Shown here: positions 44,578-61,910 of the stretch, one piece after another
Position numbering within the stretch: the stretch's first letter is position 1
How the letters are laid out: each line of letters opens with the position of its first letter
Origin: a virus
Lineage: Duplodnaviria > Caudoviricetes
Strand: one strand, 5' to 3'
Length of the DNA: 64,000 bases
IMG/VR virus record: IMGVR_UViG_3300032327_000953
Location: 32,001-96,000 of that record
Notes under the pieces: generated by a model
What the model was told of the DNA's origin: nothing
Seen by the model: only the letters and a program-made list of their open reading frames with translations
The model's database searches: none
Position numbers and translations under genes: made by a program

Positions 44578-45522
44578 TCAATTATAATATAGATCGTTCT
44601 TAATTTTAGTGTATTTTTTCCAAAAACCATTCTTGTTATTATGTTTCCAATTGATGAGCAAATGCTTTGGAGAAATCTGAAATTTAGTTCCAGAATATAA
44701 AATATTACTATCAATATAACATGTATTATCATAACAAGAAATTAAATCATACTTTGAAGAATTGTCTTTATGAACAAGTGTAATTTTACTATCAATATAA
44801 CCATTTGCAAATTGTAGATTTGATAAATTGATTATGTAACCAAAAATTCTCTCTAGTGAGTGTGGGATTTGTCCTTCTACAGAATCTGATATTGCTCCTT
44901 CTGGAAGCATCTTATAAACACTATCAATAATATCGTTTGTAAAATACCTTTTAAAAATTTTGGTACGTGACATAAAAATAGATCCGGCAAGAAATGACAA
45001 ATCATGCCTAGCTATCTGCTCTACTGGAATATGTAGATAATTATGTAAAATCTGGTATATTAACTCTGTGTTAAATCCTTCTCTTTCTCTATCAAGTAGT
45101 AGTCCCGTATTTCCTATTGCTCCTATGGAACTATTGAAATTCATAAGATCAATATTATTATGAAAAATATCTTCGTTACCTATTAGAGAATTAACAAGAA
45201 GACTTCTCCAAGAAATATTTTTATGAATACCCCACAAAGATTTTTTAGAGTGTAGTTTAATAAAATATGGATATTCATCTTCATCTAGTTCTTTAAGCTG
45301 TAATAAGAATGGCCCTATATCAACTCCCTTATTTGGAAAAACTAGTGTTTTGCAAGAGAATGATTCTTGGGCATCTTCTGATATTAAGGAGTTGTTCTTA
45401 CATAAATCATCTGAGGAAAGAGCTAAGAACAAATCTATTTCAGATTTAATTGGTTCTAGTAGCTGTTTGTATTCTTTCCAGAGTGCCGTATCATATAAGT
45501 ACAATAATACTGCTGTTTTCAT
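44578..45522 (-). CDS. Rhamnan synthesis F (RgpF)-like glycosyltransferase (314 aa)
   Basis: FPNKGVDIGPFL, FIKLHSKKS, WRSLL, FLAGSIF and HSLERIFG are characteristic of the RgpF family. Confidence 0.8.
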   Translation of the reverse strand: MKTAVLLYLYDTALWKEYKQLLEPIKSEIDLFLALSSDDLCKNNSLISEDAQESFSCKTLVFPNKGVDIGPFLLQLKELDEDEYPYFIKLHSKKSLWGIHKNISWRSLLVNSLIGNEDIFHNNIDLMNFNSSIGAIGNTGLLLDREREGFNTELIYQILHNYLHIPVEQIARHDLSFLAGSIFMSRTKIFKRYFTNDIIDSVYKMLPEGAISDSVEGQIPHSLERIFGYIINLSNLQFANGYIDSKITLVHKDNSSKYDLISCYDNTCYIDSNILYSGTKFQISPKHLLINWKHNNKNGFWKKYTKIKNDLYYN

Positions 45523-46061
45523 ACTTTATTGATAAACAGGGTTCCTGTCCATATTATATTTTTGCTATTAAGTCCATTAACAATAAAATTAAAAGATCCA
45601 GTAGTATTATCTATAGATAGAGATATAACAACGCTTTCCATACCAGAATCAACAAATGATGTTGTGGATGGTGATCCTACTATCGAAAGAGTACCGCTGC
45701 TATTTCTTTTTATTGCTCCTTGCATATTAAATGATGAACTAGTATCATCAGTAATATTATATGCTGAAATCATTGCTAAAAAGTTTTGAGTTGTGGATAG
45801 TGGTAGATATGTGCTGGAATCCACTAGGGAAAGAGTATATGAGGAATTATTTGTTGTTGTTCCTGATAGTTTGATTATTTCTTTTGGGGTATTGACTGGA
45901 CCAGTTTTTCCTCTTGGGCCTCTTGGGCCGGGTGGTCCTGGAATACCTTGCTTACCAGCTTGTCCTGGAGTACCAGAATTAAACTCAATAATAGTTGATT
46001 GTATAAAATTATCTATTATAGATAGCTTATCTGTTCCATTAATAAGAATTGCTTCTGCCAT
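45519..46061 (-). CDS. Small virion protein (180 aa) with a short Gly-Pro-rich collagen segment
   Basis: GTPGQAGKQGIPGPPGPRGPRGKTGP followed by a beta-rich domain ending IIWTGTLFINKV. Confidence 0.65.
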   Translation of the reverse strand: MAEAILINGTDKLSIIDNFIQSTIIEFNSGTPGQAGKQGIPGPPGPRGPRGKTGPVNTPKEIIKLSGTTTNNSSYTLSLVDSSTYLPLSTTQNFLAMISAYNITDDTSSSFNMQGAIKRNSSGTLSIVGSPSTTSFVDSGMESVVISLSIDNTTGSFNFIVNGLNSKNIIWTGTLFINKV

Positions 46062-46063
46062 AA

Positions 46064-47488
46064 TTATTCTTCTGCTATATTATATTTTAATAGTTTAGGA
46101 TCATTAACTGTTCCAGTAATAGCACTATCTATTGTGAATGTGGTCTTGGCTGTTCCAGTAGAATATGATGGAGTTGAGTTGATCTTTCTGGTTGTGGCAA
46201 CAATGCCCGAACCATTATTATATTCAATAATAACAATATCTCCAGATGCTAATGCATATGTTATATCTCCATCAATAGAAACTGAAGTTCCTAATAGTGT
46301 TATATCTCTATGAAGATTACCACAAGCATTAAAGTTTAGTGAACTATTTGATGATTCATTTTGATAATACACAATAAGTTTTACAGCACCAACGAGACCT
46401 GAATCTTTTTCGTTATAGTCCACAGCATATAGTTTCCAGTCTCCAAATACATTCATTCCTTCGAATGTTTTTAATCCACTGCTGTATACAGTTATATTTT
46501 TATTACTGTCTGATGTATCAAATGCGCCAGAAGGTAATGGATATCTTAAAGATGCTGGATTAGAGCATCCTGGTAAAGTTACAGATAAGTTCTTATTATC
46601 TATTAATGTATTTTTATAGTCTGTTATATTCGATGTTGACGGAGAGGATCCATCTGGTCGAGCTACTGCATAATCTGATATTATAAAAGATACATTTTTT
46701 GGTTGGTTATTATAACTAAATTTGTTTTGATCTAATAGAATAACACCACTACCATTATGCACTAAAAGAACTCTTAAGTCTGTTGGATTAGAATGAGAAA
46801 AACCATCGAATAAAACGTCAATTCTCTCTATGGTTCTAGATTCTGTAACGCTTAAAGATGCTGGAAAAGGACTGCTTTTGCCATATGGATTTTCATTACC
46901 AGCAAGAATTCTATCTTTAAAATAAATGACAGATTCTGATGTGGACGTATTGTATACTGGGAAAATATTAGCATTTCCGCCAATAAATTCACAAGGAGAT
47001 CCAACACAACTATCCAATATGCTGTAACTTGATAGATCCTGTTCTGCTCCAAAAATAGTTTGAGCATCTTCTGTAAGAGAGCATGAAGGTAAAGATGCTG
47101 CTGGAATAAGACGTTTTTTAATAGTGATAGTTCCTTGAACAAGTCTTTTAACAATTCTGGATCCGCCATTATAGAACAAATCAGGATAAGTAATTTCTAG
47201 TTCGTAGTTAGCAGTAGGCCAGGTATAACTATTGGTCGTTTCTGCTGGTAGTCTTAGAGAGATGAGTCCTTTCTCTGGAAACATTCTTAATGAATATGCT
47301 GTGGTTGTGGTATTTCCTGTTGTGGTCAATGTGATAAGATCAGTATTTGGTCCACTTAAAGGCTTAATACGTAATACAACACAACAGTTAGAAATATCCA
47401 TAGCGATATTAGAAGTATTTAGATAACTAAAATCTATGGCAAAAATTGTGCCTTGTTCTATAATAAAATTATATTCTGTTGCTGCCAT
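46064..47488 (-). CDS. Virion protein (474 aa): BppU/LtfC-like N-terminal domain plus proprotein-convertase P-domain
   Basis: N-terminus YNFIIEQGTIFAIDFSY is paralogous to 63381..63785. IERIDVLFDGFSHSNPTDLRVLLVH...FEGMNVFGDWKLYAVDYNEKDSGLVGAVKLIV matches the P-domain pattern (about 46370-46860). Confidence 0.65.
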   Translation of the reverse strand: MAATEYNFIIEQGTIFAIDFSYLNTSNIAMDISNCCVVLRIKPLSGPNTDLITLTTTGNTTTTAYSLRMFPEKGLISLRLPAETTNSYTWPTANYELEITYPDLFYNGGSRIVKRLVQGTITIKKRLIPAASLPSCSLTEDAQTIFGAEQDLSSYSILDSCVGSPCEFIGGNANIFPVYNTSTSESVIYFKDRILAGNENPYGKSSPFPASLSVTESRTIERIDVLFDGFSHSNPTDLRVLLVHNGSGVILLDQNKFSYNNQPKNVSFIISDYAVARPDGSSPSTSNITDYKNTLIDNKNLSVTLPGCSNPASLRYPLPSGAFDTSDSNKNITVYSSGLKTFEGMNVFGDWKLYAVDYNEKDSGLVGAVKLIVYYQNESSNSSLNFNACGNLHRDITLLGTSVSIDGDITYALASGDIVIIEYNNGSGIVATTRKINSTPSYSTGTAKTTFTIDSAITGTVNDPKLLKYNIAEE

Positions 47489-60845: not shown

Positions 60846-60873
60846 ATAGTAGAACGATTAAGAATAGTGTCAA
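60846..60873 (-). promoter_or_regulatory. Possible sigma70-type promoter for the glycosidase-like and GT25 fusion genes
   Basis: TTGACA (60873-60868), 16-nt spacer, TACTAT (60851-60846), 35 nt upstream of ATG 60811. Confidence 0.5.
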
Positions 60874-60880
60874 TAATGAA

Positions 60881-61456
60881 CTATAAGGATTTCCATAATA
60901 CAATATCATCAGAATAGATTTGTCTAACTTTATATTCTTGTTCTGGTGTTAAGATTATTTTTTCTGCTGTCTTGCTAAAGTTAATTTTTTCTATTGGAGT
61001 ATTAATACCCAAATAATTAGCCATACCCATAATATCTGGAAATACAAATAGTTTACTTTTTTCATTCATTAAATGGCTTACAGGGGCTAGATGATACCAA
61101 GATGTTCCAGCACAGTATTCTAAATCATGTCTATCGGTATATTCTGGCTTGTCTCCAAGACCATGAAACCAATATAACCAACAAAATGCTTTTTCAGGAG
61201 ATATGTTCATTCTCCAAAGTAGTGAGATGAATCTTTCTATAGGGTTTCGTACCATAACAGCGCAACCATCTGGAAGATCTTCTCCAATCATATAATTATT
61301 TAATCGGTGTCCTTCTCCATCTATTATTGGATAATCTGGTATACGTTCTGGATAAAAATAACGAAGAGACATCATTCCGATTGATGATGTTCCAGATCGA
61401 CTAACAAAACAAAAGTTTTTATTGTTCGGTAGGGAATACCATATTTTCCAAGTCAT
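60881..61456 (-). CDS. Sulfotransferase family 2-like protein (second paralogue)
   Basis: VSRSGTSS, VRNPIERFIS, EQEYKVRQIYSDDIVLW; CAGGAG RBS before ATG 61456. Confidence 0.7.
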   Translation of the reverse strand: MTWKIWYSLPNNKNFCFVSRSGTSSIGMMSLRYFYPERIPDYPIIDGEGHRLNNYMIGEDLPDGCAVMVRNPIERFISLLWRMNISPEKAFCWLYWFHGLGDKPEYTDRHDLEYCAGTSWYHLAPVSHLMNEKSKLFVFPDIMGMANYLGINTPIEKINFSKTAEKIILTPEQEYKVRQIYSDDIVLWKSL

Positions 61457-61910
61457 GTGGTTTCTCCTGTAGGTGCCAGCCAATGCTTACACGCCAACAA
61501 CTAGCAAATACCGCATGCCATTCTGGACATGAGAACGCACGAATATTCCAACCTGGTTTGTCATAATCAATAATAGTCTTGCCATCTTTATACCAAAGCA
61601 TACCACTATTACCATTTTCACTCCAAGCAGCATATAGTCTTTGTCCTGGCCAGTCGCCATTAGTGTGCCAGTCCATATAACCTCCTGGTGGGTAGATCAT
61701 CCTGCCGCTAATACGATGTGTTGTAGTTTCATACGCTTCTCGTCCAATATTGAAGTTTGTATTACATCCTGGCCCACGATAACGAGCTTCCGAAGGAGGT
61801 ATTGTTTGGATAAAAATATCTATATTTGTAGGCAAAACTTGAGATGGTATGTAATATTGAGTTAACCATTCTGATGTGATTTCAGGCAGCTTTACGCCAA
61901 AAATAATCAT
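61419..61910 (-). CDS. 2OG-Fe(II) oxygenase or cupin-like protein (about 163 aa)
   Basis: YPPGGYMDWHTN...EWHAV...WRVSIGW double-stranded beta-helix pattern; has HxN rather than the canonical HxD. Confidence 0.55.
   Translation of the reverse strand: MIIFGVKLPEITSEWLTQYYIPSQVLPTNIDIFIQTIPPSEARYRGPGCNTNFNIGREAYETTTHRISGRMIYPPGGYMDWHTNGDWPGQRLYAAWSENGNSGMLWYKDGKTIIDYDKPGWNIRAFSCPEWHAVFASCWRVSIGWHLQEKPHDLENMVFPTEQ

Follow-up and report, generated by a model that had tools for sequence, protein, structure and literature searches.

Glycan-tailoring enzymes interleaved with fibre genes in a freshwater phage suggest decoration of its own fibres

Described systems that decorate virion and collagen-like proteins

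Mycobacteriophages glycosylate virion proteins with their own glycosyltransferases (Freeman et al. 2023, Cell Host Microbe, as related in PMC12619734 and PMC12801897), and in these accounts the glycans were measured on the C-termini of capsid and tail-tube subunits. In Mimivirus, L230 fuses a GT25-like (GLT25D1-like) glucosyltransferase to a lysyl hydroxylase and modifies viral collagen-like proteins: lysine is hydroxylated, and the hydroxylysine is then glucosylated (PMC9614988). The chlorovirus PBCV-1 uses A064R (GT-GT-methyltransferase) and A061L to place methylated sugars on a virion protein (PMC9614988). Collagen-like filaments are also glycosylated in spore-forming bacteria: SgtA of C. 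difficile acts on the collagen-like BclA3 (PMC7157674), and BclA of B. anthracis bears a rhamnose-anthrose oligosaccharide (PMC6947953).

We analyzed an uncultured freshwater phage with a genome of 238 kb and terminal repeats. Coordinates refer to the window, a stretch of 64,000 nucleotides of this genome (positions 32,001 to 96,000 of IMGVR_UViG_3300032327_000953). Like the mycobacteriophages, as far as the accounts cited describe them, it has glycosyltransferase genes in or beside structural genes, and its own virion proteins are the presumed target. The targets presumed in this phage are its collagen-like and propeller fibres, and the enzymes belong to the GH130-fold, GT25 and GT-A families, always coupled to methyltransferases, whereas the mycobacteriophage enzymes are of other families. 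As in Mimivirus, a GT25-type domain and a double-stranded beta-helix (cupin) protein stand alongside proline-poor collagen-like proteins, but the phage collagen is nearly devoid of lysine, the cupin is encoded by a separate gene beside a sulfotransferase-like gene, and few relatives have the GT25 domain. The multidomain glycosyltransferase-methyltransferases of PBCV-1 resemble the GT25-TPR-FkbM-like and GT-A-methyltransferase fusions described below, but they belong to a eukaryotic virus, make N-glycans of a capsid protein, come from unrelated glycosyltransferase families and lack TPR domains or linkage to fibre genes. The spore proteins offer a collagen-like filament that is O-glycosylated in the cytoplasm by soluble transferases encoded nearby and that carries unusual tailored sugars, as we propose for the phage. 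They are bacterial, with Gly-Pro-Thr-type repeats and GT2/GT4-type enzymes, whereas the phage combines Gly-X-Gln repeats with GH130-fold and TPR-FkbM-like proteins. We found no published description of the two sets of fibre and enzyme genes analyzed below.

A late-type block between capsid and neck genes

A late-type minus-strand block running from the capsid gene to the neck genes interleaves fibre genes with tailoring enzymes. The latter are placed between the capsid-like and tape measure genes, among collagen-like, propeller and connector-like genes whose order is the same in related phages. They comprise a GH130-fold propeller, a GT25-TPR-FkbM-like fusion, a GT-A enzyme, an RgpF-like transferase, two small sulfotransferase-like proteins, a class I methyltransferase and a cupin. 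A sequence-only reading of the window had claimed that such enzymes are woven into the virion genes, and each one that it listed is present at its place, with identities that hold at the level of fold or family. None of the tailoring enzymes of the block has a membrane-spanning segment, and hence we count them as soluble.

The only strong minus-strand terminator-like hairpin in 44100-64000 (63886..63913; 11 pairs, 7 G-C, then a T run) lies directly 3' of the capsid-like gene, and no terminator was found inside the fibre and enzyme block. A candidate late promoter (63845..63850, minus strand; GGTGTA then TATAGTT) stands in the gap 5' of a gene encoding a 134-aa protein, and the transcription unit starting there extends to 48712. 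The GGTGTA motif is repeated in gaps at 48042, 44561 and 42402. Between 38 and 64 kb, four of its eight minus-strand copies are intergenic, when around 0.3 would be expected, given that gaps account for about 3% of the sequence, and the late-type motifs stand at unit starts. From the position of the cassette genes in such units, we infer that they are expressed late. The 134-aa protein (63381..63785, minus strand) belongs to the phrog_1084 domain family, and its gene directly follows the capsid-like gene in relatives too. The same domain forms the N-terminus of a fibre-like 474-aa protein, encoded together with a 180-aa protein whose C-terminus is tail-fibre-like and which contains a short, Pro-rich stretch of collagen (45519..47488, minus strand). 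A conserved connector-like protein of 171 aa (47488..48003, minus strand) opens the next late-type unit. Genes for a GDP-mannose 4,6-dehydratase (1e-112) and a TylF-like methyltransferase are found at the head of the same minus-strand block.

Glucosylated DNA is a frequent product of phage glycosyltransferases, and action on DNA has been raised as a general possibility for them (PMC12619734; PMC12801897). The glycosyl- and methyltransferases might therefore decorate the phage's bases against restriction. This is very improbable, because the genes are in late structural units between capsid and tail, are linked to fibres across lineages, and have no base-modifying enzyme (hydroxymethylase or similar) nearby. 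Furthermore, we know of no DNA-modification precedent for the TPR and sulfotransferase-like parts.

A stronger competitor, although less probable than decoration of the fibres, is that the enzymes have as their substrates the cytoplasmic precursors of host O-antigen, EPS or S-layer glycan. The receptor of the neighbouring fibres would be masked or altered, such that superinfecting phages are excluded or progeny are kept off debris. The need for an enzyme to match its receptor-binding protein would then keep the enzymes with the fibre genes, by analogy with phage T5, where llp adjoins the receptor-binding gene. If the enzymes alter the fibre-bound receptor, close linkage to the fibres would be expected just as much, and hence it does not decide against remodelling of the host. 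Moreover, it is above all for the synthesis of LPS and cell-wall polysaccharides that the GT25, RgpF and GDP-mannose dehydratase families are known. Yet the enzymes are soluble, and no membrane transferase, flippase, polymerase or initiating transferase was found in the late block (genome 70-107 kb). Expression late in the lytic cycle would also leave little time for the cell surface to be renewed.

Two recurrent sets of fibre and enzyme genes

Judging from sequence and gene order, the first set (cassette A) is a conserved association of a proline-free Gly-X-Gln collagen-like fibre with a GH130-like enzyme and a TPR-FkbM-like partner. The core enzyme, which had been read as a glycosidase-like propeller, is indeed a five-bladed propeller of 325 aa (59834..60811, minus strand) with a GH130 fold (Z 23.3, rmsd 3.2 Å over 270 residues), of mannoside phosphorylase or mannosyltransferase-like type. 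It has relatives on at least 587 of 2.9 million viral contigs. A TPR/FkbM-like partner accompanies it in 48 of 51 non-redundant loci (the next gene in 44, fused in 2), and the trio with the collagen is annotated in Synechococcus phage DSL-LC02. A collagen-like gene is present in 28 of the 51 loci, mostly directly upstream, and absent from the fetched stretch in the other 23; enrichment near versus far within these loci is not significant (Fisher p = 0.09). In the reverse direction, the enzyme pair was found in 16 of 80 loci picked only by a (Gly-Thr-Gln)x3 DNA pattern, to be compared with its overall frequency among the contigs. The GH130-like family occurs only 14 times among 185,579 species genomes, always in metagenome bins and mostly on contigs below 10 kb. 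It is thus a family of phage genes and was not recently copied from the cell-wall genes of a host, and its near absence from cellular genomes argues against host remodelling.

The partner is a fusion of 660 aa (57859..59841, minus strand). The GT25-like part spans residues 1-250; its EDD motif is invariant, and its profile matches PDB 8xlz and Mimivirus R655 (9e-6). TPR repeats were confirmed at residues ~260-450, and residues ~460-660 form an FkbM-like, methyltransferase-like domain. Hence, of the proposed GT25-TPR-FkbM architecture, the first two parts hold and the FkbM match stays below threshold. Of this fusion, the TPR-FkbM-like part is what constantly pairs with the GH130-like gene, and in other phages it is fused to extra GT25, FkbM, Methyltransf_24 or GT17 domains, which points to a glycan-building function. 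The TPR domain suggests a protein substrate, again at odds with host glycan precursors. In Caulobacter FlmG and in OGT, which are TPR-fused protein glycosyltransferases, the TPR array grips the protein substrate. The 660-aa protein likewise fuses a TPR array to a tailoring enzyme, but there the array is joined to a GT-B transferase, whereas here its fusion partner is a methyltransferase-like domain, with GT25 or other domains added variably.

The collagen-like fibre has 1081 aa (54571..57816, minus strand), with an Mtd_N domain and 272 Gly-X-Y triplets in which X is Ser (35%), Leu (25%) or Val (15%) and Y is Gln in 75%. Pro stands at 0.6% and Lys at 0.4%, and this unusual Pro- and Lys-poor Gly-X-Gln composition is common to 6617 triplets of cassette A collagens across loci. 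The constant feature of enzyme-linked collagens is Gln at Y, while their Ser/Thr content ranges from 4% to 57%. Hence, simple O-glycosylation of Ser/Thr in the repeats does not fit some cases.

Catabolic phosphorylases are the best-known enzymes with a GH130 fold. One might have expected carbohydrate catabolism, salvage or auxiliary metabolism, with a mannoside phosphorylase, propellers acting as lyases or hydrolases, a host or environmental polysaccharide degraded by virion-borne depolymerases or within the cell, and transferases and methyltransferases as unrelated cargo. Structurally, the 325-aa protein is matched best by beta-mannoside phosphorylases, the propellers described below match the virginiamycin B lyase family, and the homologue in Synechococcus phage S-SCSM2R is annotated as a mannosylglucose phosphorylase. 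The pair has true homologues there in ORF194/195, with 54% identity for the GH130-like protein. The paper on that phage (PMC12801897) took them for a phosphorylase that breaks down mannan and a protein of cytochrome c biogenesis, both acting on the host, with host cell-wall modification or mannan degradation as its interpretation, and mentions neither their pairing nor a link to fibre genes. We consider catabolism unlikely, since the constant partner, TPR-methyltransferase-like and often fused to a glycosyltransferase, fits synthesis and not breakdown. The same match list also contains mannoside-synthesising GH130-fold enzymes (Uhgb_MS synthase and Leishmania GDP-mannose transferases), the GT-A-methyltransferase fusions indicate synthesis, and neither transporters nor downstream sugar-metabolism genes were found near the cassettes.

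The second conserved set (cassette B), as gene order across phages indicates, usually has three tandem seven-bladed propeller proteins, followed by a GT-A enzyme and p166. In this phage, two paralogous seven-bladed propellers of 378 and 375 aa (52302..54569, minus strand) have Vgb-lyase-like repeats and share their N-terminal region and C-terminal tail. They are followed by a 458-aa protein (50924..52300, minus strand) that combines the propeller N-terminus with four blades and a Gly-rich C-terminal domain, an arrangement found also in L234 and L235. A 136-aa protein has three blades and the conserved C-terminal tail (49997..50407, minus strand). The core enzyme, of 277 aa (49148..49981, minus strand), had been called GT2-like; it is a GT-A-type glycosyltransferase-like protein by its PHROG match (4e-8) and by the motifs ARN, GEDTV and GEDNFF, invariant across 21 homologues, with a Pfam GT2 match under the cut-off. 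Its constant downstream partner, p166 (166 aa; 48712..49212, minus strand), is of unknown family. More than 800 GT-A homologues exist, with at least 62% identity among the 120 matches listed. In nearly all of 80 loci, a propeller gene lies upstream, usually three in tandem, and p166 downstream; T4-like phages have the same order.

In 69 of 79 homologues, the GT-A domain is fused to a methyltransferase from one of two unrelated families, and most of the ten without a fusion, this phage among them, have their methyltransferase as a separate gene nearby. A coupling of sugar transferase and methyltransferase runs through every version. Here, the methyltransferase is, as previously proposed, a class I SAM enzyme (Methyltransf_24, 37.1 bits for a cut-off of 26.3; 48150..48722, plus strand). 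Its opposite strand and its near-consensus sigma-70-type, host-type promoter (48119-48147) mean that it may not be late, which suits host remodelling. Host surface glycans and the enzymes that modify them usually diversify fast. The mean column identities of 70% for the GT-A enzyme and 67% for the propellers, across unrelated phages, are unusually high for such a role.

Accessory genes and the proposed decoration of fibres

Two sulfotransferase-like genes had been announced and are supported by structure. The first (60881..61483, minus strand) is an ORF of 200 aa whose likely start is Met10 at 61456, and the second (169 aa; 50411..50920, minus strand) lies between the genes of the 458-aa and the three-blade 136-aa proteins. 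The structural model (pLDDT 89) has a best Z of 7.3, every one of the 50 matches listed is a sulfotransferase, and there is a conserved RNPxERFxS motif. The Pfam scores of the window's own FkbM, GT2 and sulfotransferase candidates are all under the cut-offs. The 166-aa cupin (61419..61919, minus strand), whose gene is invariably directly upstream of a sulfotransferase-like gene, has invariant H85-T-N87, H135 and R143-x-S145 (H-x-N...H...R-x-S). The 2OG-oxygenase-like assignment thus stands for the fold but not for the canonical iron triad, since the acidic ligand is missing. The 314-aa RgpF-like glycosyltransferase (44578..45522, minus strand) matches only the C-terminal half of PF05045 (56.4 bits for a cut-off of 25), as anticipated, and has no close relatives among viral contigs.

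The sequence-only reading had also tied the enzymes to Ser/Thr/Pro tracts in fibres. Thr/Pro-rich tracts of 15-99 residues do occur in eight large proteins genome-wide, but only one adjoins the enzymes; two more are elsewhere in the window and the rest outside. The adjacent one, a Ser/Thr-rich protein of 343 aa (61907..62938, minus strand), has its Thr/Pro/Ser tract at residues 38-63 and probably serves as a small fibre or as a decoration protein. The 458-aa propeller protein has a Thr/Ser run without Pro. Across phages, the enzymes co-occur with collagen-like and propeller fibres; in this genome, most of the Thr/Pro linker proteins are distant from them.

The GH130-like/TPR-FkbM-like pair and the GT-A(-methyltransferase) gene are each inherited along with one specific type of fibre, even among widely differing phages, and comparative genomics thus supports a functional tie between enzymes and fibres. 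Since hundreds of other phages share the two gene sets in which the enzymes stand among fibres, our favoured reading is that this phage decorates its own fibres with sugars that are methylated and perhaps sulfated, and we give it a probability of around 0.5. Of the coat suggested earlier, methylated glycans on fibres are backed by fibre linkage, the coupling of glycosyltransferases and methyltransferases, solubility and late-type units, while sulfation depends on two weakly assigned accessory genes present in few relatives.

In the proposed decoration, the cassettes would be expressed late, along with virion genes, and the soluble enzymes would modify the fibre proteins in the cytoplasm before assembly. 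The GH130-fold enzyme would most likely add a beta-mannose-type sugar from mannose-1-phosphate or GDP-mannose, while the TPR part of the 660-aa protein probably holds the protein substrate and its FkbM-like domain probably methylates the sugar. In cassette B, the GT-A glycosyltransferase would work with the SAM methyltransferase and the small partner protein. The GDP-mannose 4,6-dehydratase and TylF-like methyltransferase may supply or tailor sugar donors. The two sulfotransferase-like proteins, which would draw on host PAPS, the cupin and the RgpF-like transferase beside the second, small collagen-like protein may represent variation on this scheme. The end product would be O-methylated, perhaps sulfated, glycans on the fibres.

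Setting of the tailoring enzymes in the late-type gene block

The virus record is 238,135 bp long, has direct terminal repeats and a GC content of 35%. A sigma-factor-like gene opens a single minus-strand block of around 104 kb, which ends with the distal tail genes. At its head are encoded, in this order, the sigma-like protein, a 268-aa protein, a methyltransferase of the TylF/Methyltransf_24 type, a GDP-mannose 4,6-dehydratase (Pfam match 1e-112) and an ERCC4-like nuclease, followed by the large terminase, the portal, two head genes, a capsid-like 336-aa gene, and then the region studied here. 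This region is followed on the 3' side by connector-like and tail-like genes and by the gene of a 5,292-aa protein. Hence, the studied genes are at the site where a long-tailed phage is expected to have its genes for head decoration, neck or fibres. The sequence-only reading had proposed that the glycan, sulfate and methyl tailoring enzymes found among these fibre genes decorate the virion or, alternatively, remodel the host surface, and every enzyme that it listed is present in the window at the place stated. When 24 kb of the region were compared by megablast with 50,697 phage records, no match was obtained, and an NCBIfam search of ten proteins gave nothing useful. The 'moraphage' lineage of jumbo phages, which has contractile tails and no identified tape measure (PMC12619734), was considered and rejected as the group of this virus; the phages of that study belong to another lineage.

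On the coding strand between 44100 and 64000, a single strong terminator was found, after the capsid-like gene. A motif made of GGTGTA and a TA..AGT box occurs on the minus strand at 63845, 48042, 44561 and 42402, each time in the gap upstream of a late gene (those of 134, 171, 167 and 420 aa), and is absent from the other intergenic gaps. This makes it a candidate late promoter, and a candidate for recognition by the phage's own sigma-like factor, encoded at genome positions 106311-107006. The motif would delimit two candidate transcription units, one (63785-48712) with the two enzyme cassettes described below, both sulfotransferase-like genes and a cupin gene, and the other (48003-44578) with a connector-like gene, two fibre-like genes and an RgpF-like gene. 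A methyltransferase gene on the plus strand (48150-48722) has a near-perfect host-type promoter. In the tailoring enzymes, no hydrophobic stretch reaches the length needed to span a membrane. We found neither an APS kinase nor a second sugar-nucleotide epimerase/reductase in the genome; the phage alone is thus unable to make PAPS or to complete a deoxy-sugar pathway, and PAPS and most sugar donors must be supplied by the host.

An enzyme pair inherited with Gly-X-Gln collagens

The first cassette comprises a collagen-like fibre (1081 aa), a 325-aa protein (59834-60811, minus strand) and a 660-aa fusion (57859-59841, minus strand). The AlphaFold model of the 325-aa protein (pLDDT 81) is a five-bladed beta-propeller whose top matches among solved structures are all GH130 (Foldseek E 1.8e-9). 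With VIA-align the match spans the whole protein (Z 23.3, rmsd 3.2 Å, 270 residues) and the best 21 entries are without exception GH130 enzymes (beta-mannoside phosphorylases, hydrolases or synthases), followed by GH43 (Z around 18) and by GT108 or GDP-mannose-dependent Leishmania transferases (Z around 17.8-18). In Pfam, no family was found even at E up to 10, which leaves PF04041 unmatched, and a PDB sequence search with a 14-sequence profile gave nothing meaningful; PF04041 is carried by just 32-37% of the members of neighbouring Atlas clusters. Since the structural match comes without a PF04041 sequence match, we label the protein "GH130-fold" and do not count it as a GH130 member. Among its homologues, G115-L-E-D118-x-R120 is invariant or nearly so, as are many Arg, Lys and His residues. 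At the sequence level, this stretch resembles the E-D-P-R motif of GH130.

The 660-aa protein is made of a GT25 domain, a TPR domain and a C-terminal domain with a sub-threshold FkbM match. A profile of the GT25 part matched the GT25 structure 8xlz (9.2e-6) and Mimivirus R655 (9.4e-6) in the PDB, and its acidic E88-D89-D90, a motif of the DXD type, is invariant. The window's protein is below the Pfam cut-off for PF01755, and a homologue of the same architecture on another contig (L012) scores 28.5 bits for a cut-off of 24. The match to FkbM (PF05050) is also below threshold in the window (14.5-15.9 bits against 22.7), with 4 of 11 homologues matching (best E 2e-4). In this part of the protein a Gly-rich E-I-G-x-G is mostly conserved, D-Y-L-x-x-D is invariant at its four named residues, and the homologue in phage DSL-LC02 is annotated in GenBank as FkbM family. 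In other phages this partner protein is fused to GT25, to a canonical FkbM domain, to Methyltransf_24 or to GT17, which argues for a function in glycan building and tailoring.

Other arrangements of these domains were observed. A second, free-standing GT25-like gene lies outside the window, in the plus-strand early/middle region (genome 147576-148307, plus strand; locus L311:577-1305; 243 aa), and matches Mimivirus R655 weakly (E 0.009); elsewhere among phages, it is this variant that one finds at the N-terminus of the TPR-FkbM-like fusion, in place of the GT25 domain seen in the window. One contig (L015:9995-14635) encodes a 1546-aa fusion of the TPR-FkbM-like module with a DUF1796 papain-like domain, a GT17 glycosyltransferase and DUF6445, adjoining a 1082-aa Gly-X-Gln collagen with Gln at 97% of Y positions. 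Another (L007:12222-17039) encodes, just downstream of the enzyme pair, a 1605-aa protein with cytidylyltransferase-like and 2H-phosphoesterase/Acb1-like domains; this seems to be a further very large virion-type protein that carries enzyme domains.

In the first relatives collected, the gene of the 325-aa protein and the TPR-FkbM-like part were always adjacent, sometimes fused, and usually beside a collagen-like gene. Relatives of the 325-aa protein occur in at least 587 viral contigs. Among 51 non-redundant loci, the partner is present in 48 and is the next gene in 44, and 28 have a collagen-like gene (defined by at least 15 triplets), most often on the same strand and directly upstream. The linked collagens (6617 triplets) have almost no Pro or Lys; Y is Gln in 66% of cases, X is Thr, Ser, Ile, Ala, Leu or Val, and the window's own fibre follows this make-up. 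Their Ser/Thr content varies from 4% to 57% and Gln at Y is the constant feature. The acceptor may thus lie outside the Ser/Thr of the repeats: it could be in the terminal domains or, speculatively, be glutamine itself.

Within loci, collagen genes were not significantly more frequent near the GH130-like gene than far from it (p = 0.09). In place of this test, we scanned viral contigs, blind to the enzymes, for a DNA pattern encoding (Gly-Thr-Gln)x3. The enzyme pair was present in 16 of the 80 stretches returned, and in 12 of the 43 that were at least 8 kb long, to be compared with the at least 587 pair-carrying contigs in a collection of 2.9 million. The pair is already found in cyanophages: the metagenome assembly of Synechococcus phage DSL-LC02 has the full trio, annotated as 'collagen-like protein, beta-mannosyltransferase, FkbM family methyltransferase', and the isolate S-SCSM2R has the pair alone, adjoining a baseplate or tail-pin-like gene. 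In 185,579 cellular genomes the GH130-like family had 14 matches, all in metagenome bins and most on contigs shorter than 10 kb. These bins come from around ten unrelated phyla, one archaeon included, and the matching sequences are probably phage contigs mis-binned into MAGs. The gene position and the linkage to fibres led us to reject modification of the phage DNA as the role of the enzymes, a reading that we regard as highly improbable.

A propeller and glycosyltransferase-like module with accessory genes

The second cassette comprises tandem seven-bladed propeller proteins, a 277-aa GT-A-like protein (49148-49981, minus strand) and p166, a protein of 166 aa (48712-49212, minus strand). The GT-A-like family has more than 800 proteins, the 120 listed being all at least 62% identical to the query, with an average column identity of 70% and invariant A-R-N, G-E-D-T-V and G-E-D-N-F-F motifs. 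The protein matches a PHROG glycosyltransferase (4.3e-8) and is below threshold for Pfam GT2 (12.1 bits against 23.3). A PDB profile search gave only spurious matches to designed TIM barrels, and among cultured or deposited phage records tblastn gave no match to this protein. In nearly all of 80 viral loci, a Vgb-lyase-like seven-bladed propeller, usually as three tandem paralogues, is directly upstream of the GT-A gene and a p166 homologue is directly downstream. T4-like phages have the same order, near the gp13/gp14 neck genes. For p166 itself, a PDB profile search gave nothing meaningful, and a PF16778-type tail-fibre assembly chaperone was unsupported by a Pfam scan of 18 homologues.

Of 79 GT-A proteins, 69 have a SAM methyltransferase fused at the C-terminus, which belongs to one or the other of two unrelated families (Methyltransf_11/23 type in 59, TylF type in 10), and where GT-A is unfused, as in this phage, there is mostly a separate methyltransferase gene nearby. 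Here, it is the plus-strand gene at 48150-48722, above the Methyltransf_24 cut-off (37.1 bits against 26.3) and with a match to a PHROG methyltransferase (1.2e-14). This repeated, independent coupling of a sugar transferase to a methyltransferase is the strongest sign that the product is a methylated sugar. The third propeller gene is split here into two, a gene for four blades and a Gly-rich part and a three-blade gene, and a sulfotransferase-like gene lies between them. The same split is present in two other contigs (L234 and L235, around 230 kb and 86 kb) and has thus been maintained; it is not fresh damage. Compared with the related loci on contigs of 86-231 kb (L231-L235), identity is 97-98% for the GT-A gene, 88-90% for p166 and for the opposite-strand methyltransferase, and only around 65-70% for the flanking propeller and connector genes. 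Such identities suggest a recent swap of a three-gene block (48150-49981) between related phages. The propeller at 53433-54569 has as only relatives in deposited phages two phages of Cylindrospermopsis (H4 and H5, 31-34% identity), a freshwater cyanobacterium, and the GH130-like pair is found in Synechococcus phages; judging from these similarities, a cyanobacterial host is possible.

The accessory genes are less constant. Two sulfotransferase-like proteins, of 200 aa (60881-61483, minus strand) and 169 aa (50411-50920, minus strand), have in common an RNPxERFxS motif and a Ser/Thr-rich loop. The model of the former (pLDDT 89) had a best Foldseek E of 0.014 and a best VIA-align Z of 7.3 to a heparan sulfate 6-O-sulfotransferase, a score which, being below 8, does not settle the fold by itself; all 50 entries listed are sulfotransferases. 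Across 21 sequences, R79, P81, R84, F85 and S87 of the motif are invariant and the S-R-S-G-x-S-S loop nearly so; we take these to be the 3'-phosphate and 5'-phosphosulfate binding motifs of PAPS-dependent sulfotransferases. Pfam Sulfotransfer_2 is below threshold (14.8 bits against 22), PF03567 is found in 11-57% of the members of neighbouring Atlas clusters, PDB profile searches gave nothing meaningful, and no match came from a tblastn search of cultured or deposited phage records. Sulfation is the weakest part of the original proposal: there are indeed two genes, with a moderate assignment and few relatives that carry them.

The supposed 2OG-oxygenase gene (61419-61919, minus strand) encodes a cupin/double-stranded beta-helix, a fold similar to that of 2OG families (TM 0.53-0.57) and closer to a viral cluster carrying Phage_tail_APC (TM 0.77). 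In its 16 homologues H85-T-N87 is invariant, with Asn for Asp/Glu, as are H135 and R143-x-S145. The protein is thus 2OG-like, and the H-x-D/E...H iron triad is not there; with the acidic iron ligand replaced, we do not file the cupin as a 2OG oxygenase. Its nearest structural neighbours in the Atlas are 306-aa viral proteins that also have Phage_tail_APC, a tail assembly chaperone domain, and this likeness between models hints that the family may act on tail or fibre proteins. The RgpF-like protein (44578-45522, minus strand) matches PF05045 (56.4 bits against 25) over model positions 271-498 of 503 only; its gene has no close relatives in viral contigs and a single weak match in phage records. 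Long Thr/Pro-rich tracts had been noticed in the fibres and are real; they occur chiefly in very large proteins of the distal tail, at a distance from the enzymes.

Proposed decoration of fibres or of the host surface

The transferases are encoded by the virus, co-located with virion genes and, judging from the operon layout, co-expressed with them. The best explanation is that they decorate the phage's own fibres, to which we give a probability of around one half. It is favoured by the fact that each enzyme set is tightly co-inherited with one type of fibre whatever the lineage, by the TPR domain, the soluble enzymes and the late-type operon placement, and by the near-absence of the GH130-like family from the 185,579 cellular genomes. 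Linkage alone fits equally well a role in altering the host receptor bound by the adjacent fibre, which is the published reading for cyanophage homologues (PMC12801897). Yet, a late block without any membrane component and the unusual conservation of both the GT-A enzyme and the propeller argue against this main rival, which we consider possible but rather doubtful.

A more specific variant of fibre decoration, which seems unlikely to us, is that hundreds of aquatic phages have a distinct, proline-free Gly-X-Gln triple-helix collagen that needs its co-inherited enzyme pair for stability or function. The dedicated pair would be a GH130-fold sugar transferase and a TPR-anchored methyltransferase, and a second universal module (three propellers, GT-A-methyltransferase and p166) would give fibre tips decorated with methyl-sugars. 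The modified residue could even be glutamine, since it is Gln at Y, and not Ser/Thr, that is constant; this would be a new protein modification chemistry. A comparable case is that of some invertebrate collagens, which have glycosylated threonine in place of hydroxyproline.

To our knowledge, some mycobacteriophages are so far the only phages in which self-glycosylation of the particle has been shown. Their capsid and tail proteins are glycosylated, according to work cited in PMC12619734 and PMC12801897. Elsewhere, Mimivirus L230 modifies viral collagen and the chlorovirus proteins A064R/A061L assemble methylated sugars on the capsid protein (PMC9614988), and SgtA glycosylates the collagen-like BclA3 (PMC7157674). 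Unlike in hydroxylysine glycosylation of the L230 type, the Lys acceptor is scarce here: Lys makes up 0.4% of the phage fibre and 0-3% of the repeats of linked collagens. We found no paper describing either cassette.

With the two cassettes come two well-defined enzyme-substrate pairs that are open to testing, and a possible proline-free route to the stabilisation of collagen. If they decorate fibres, the annotation of such genes, now read as host cell-wall genes or metabolic cargo, would change. Glycan-coated, methyl-capped and sometimes sulfated fibres would then be common in freshwater and marine phages, cyanophages included, which would bear on how hosts are recognised, on the stability of particles and their stickiness to organic matter, and on grazing.
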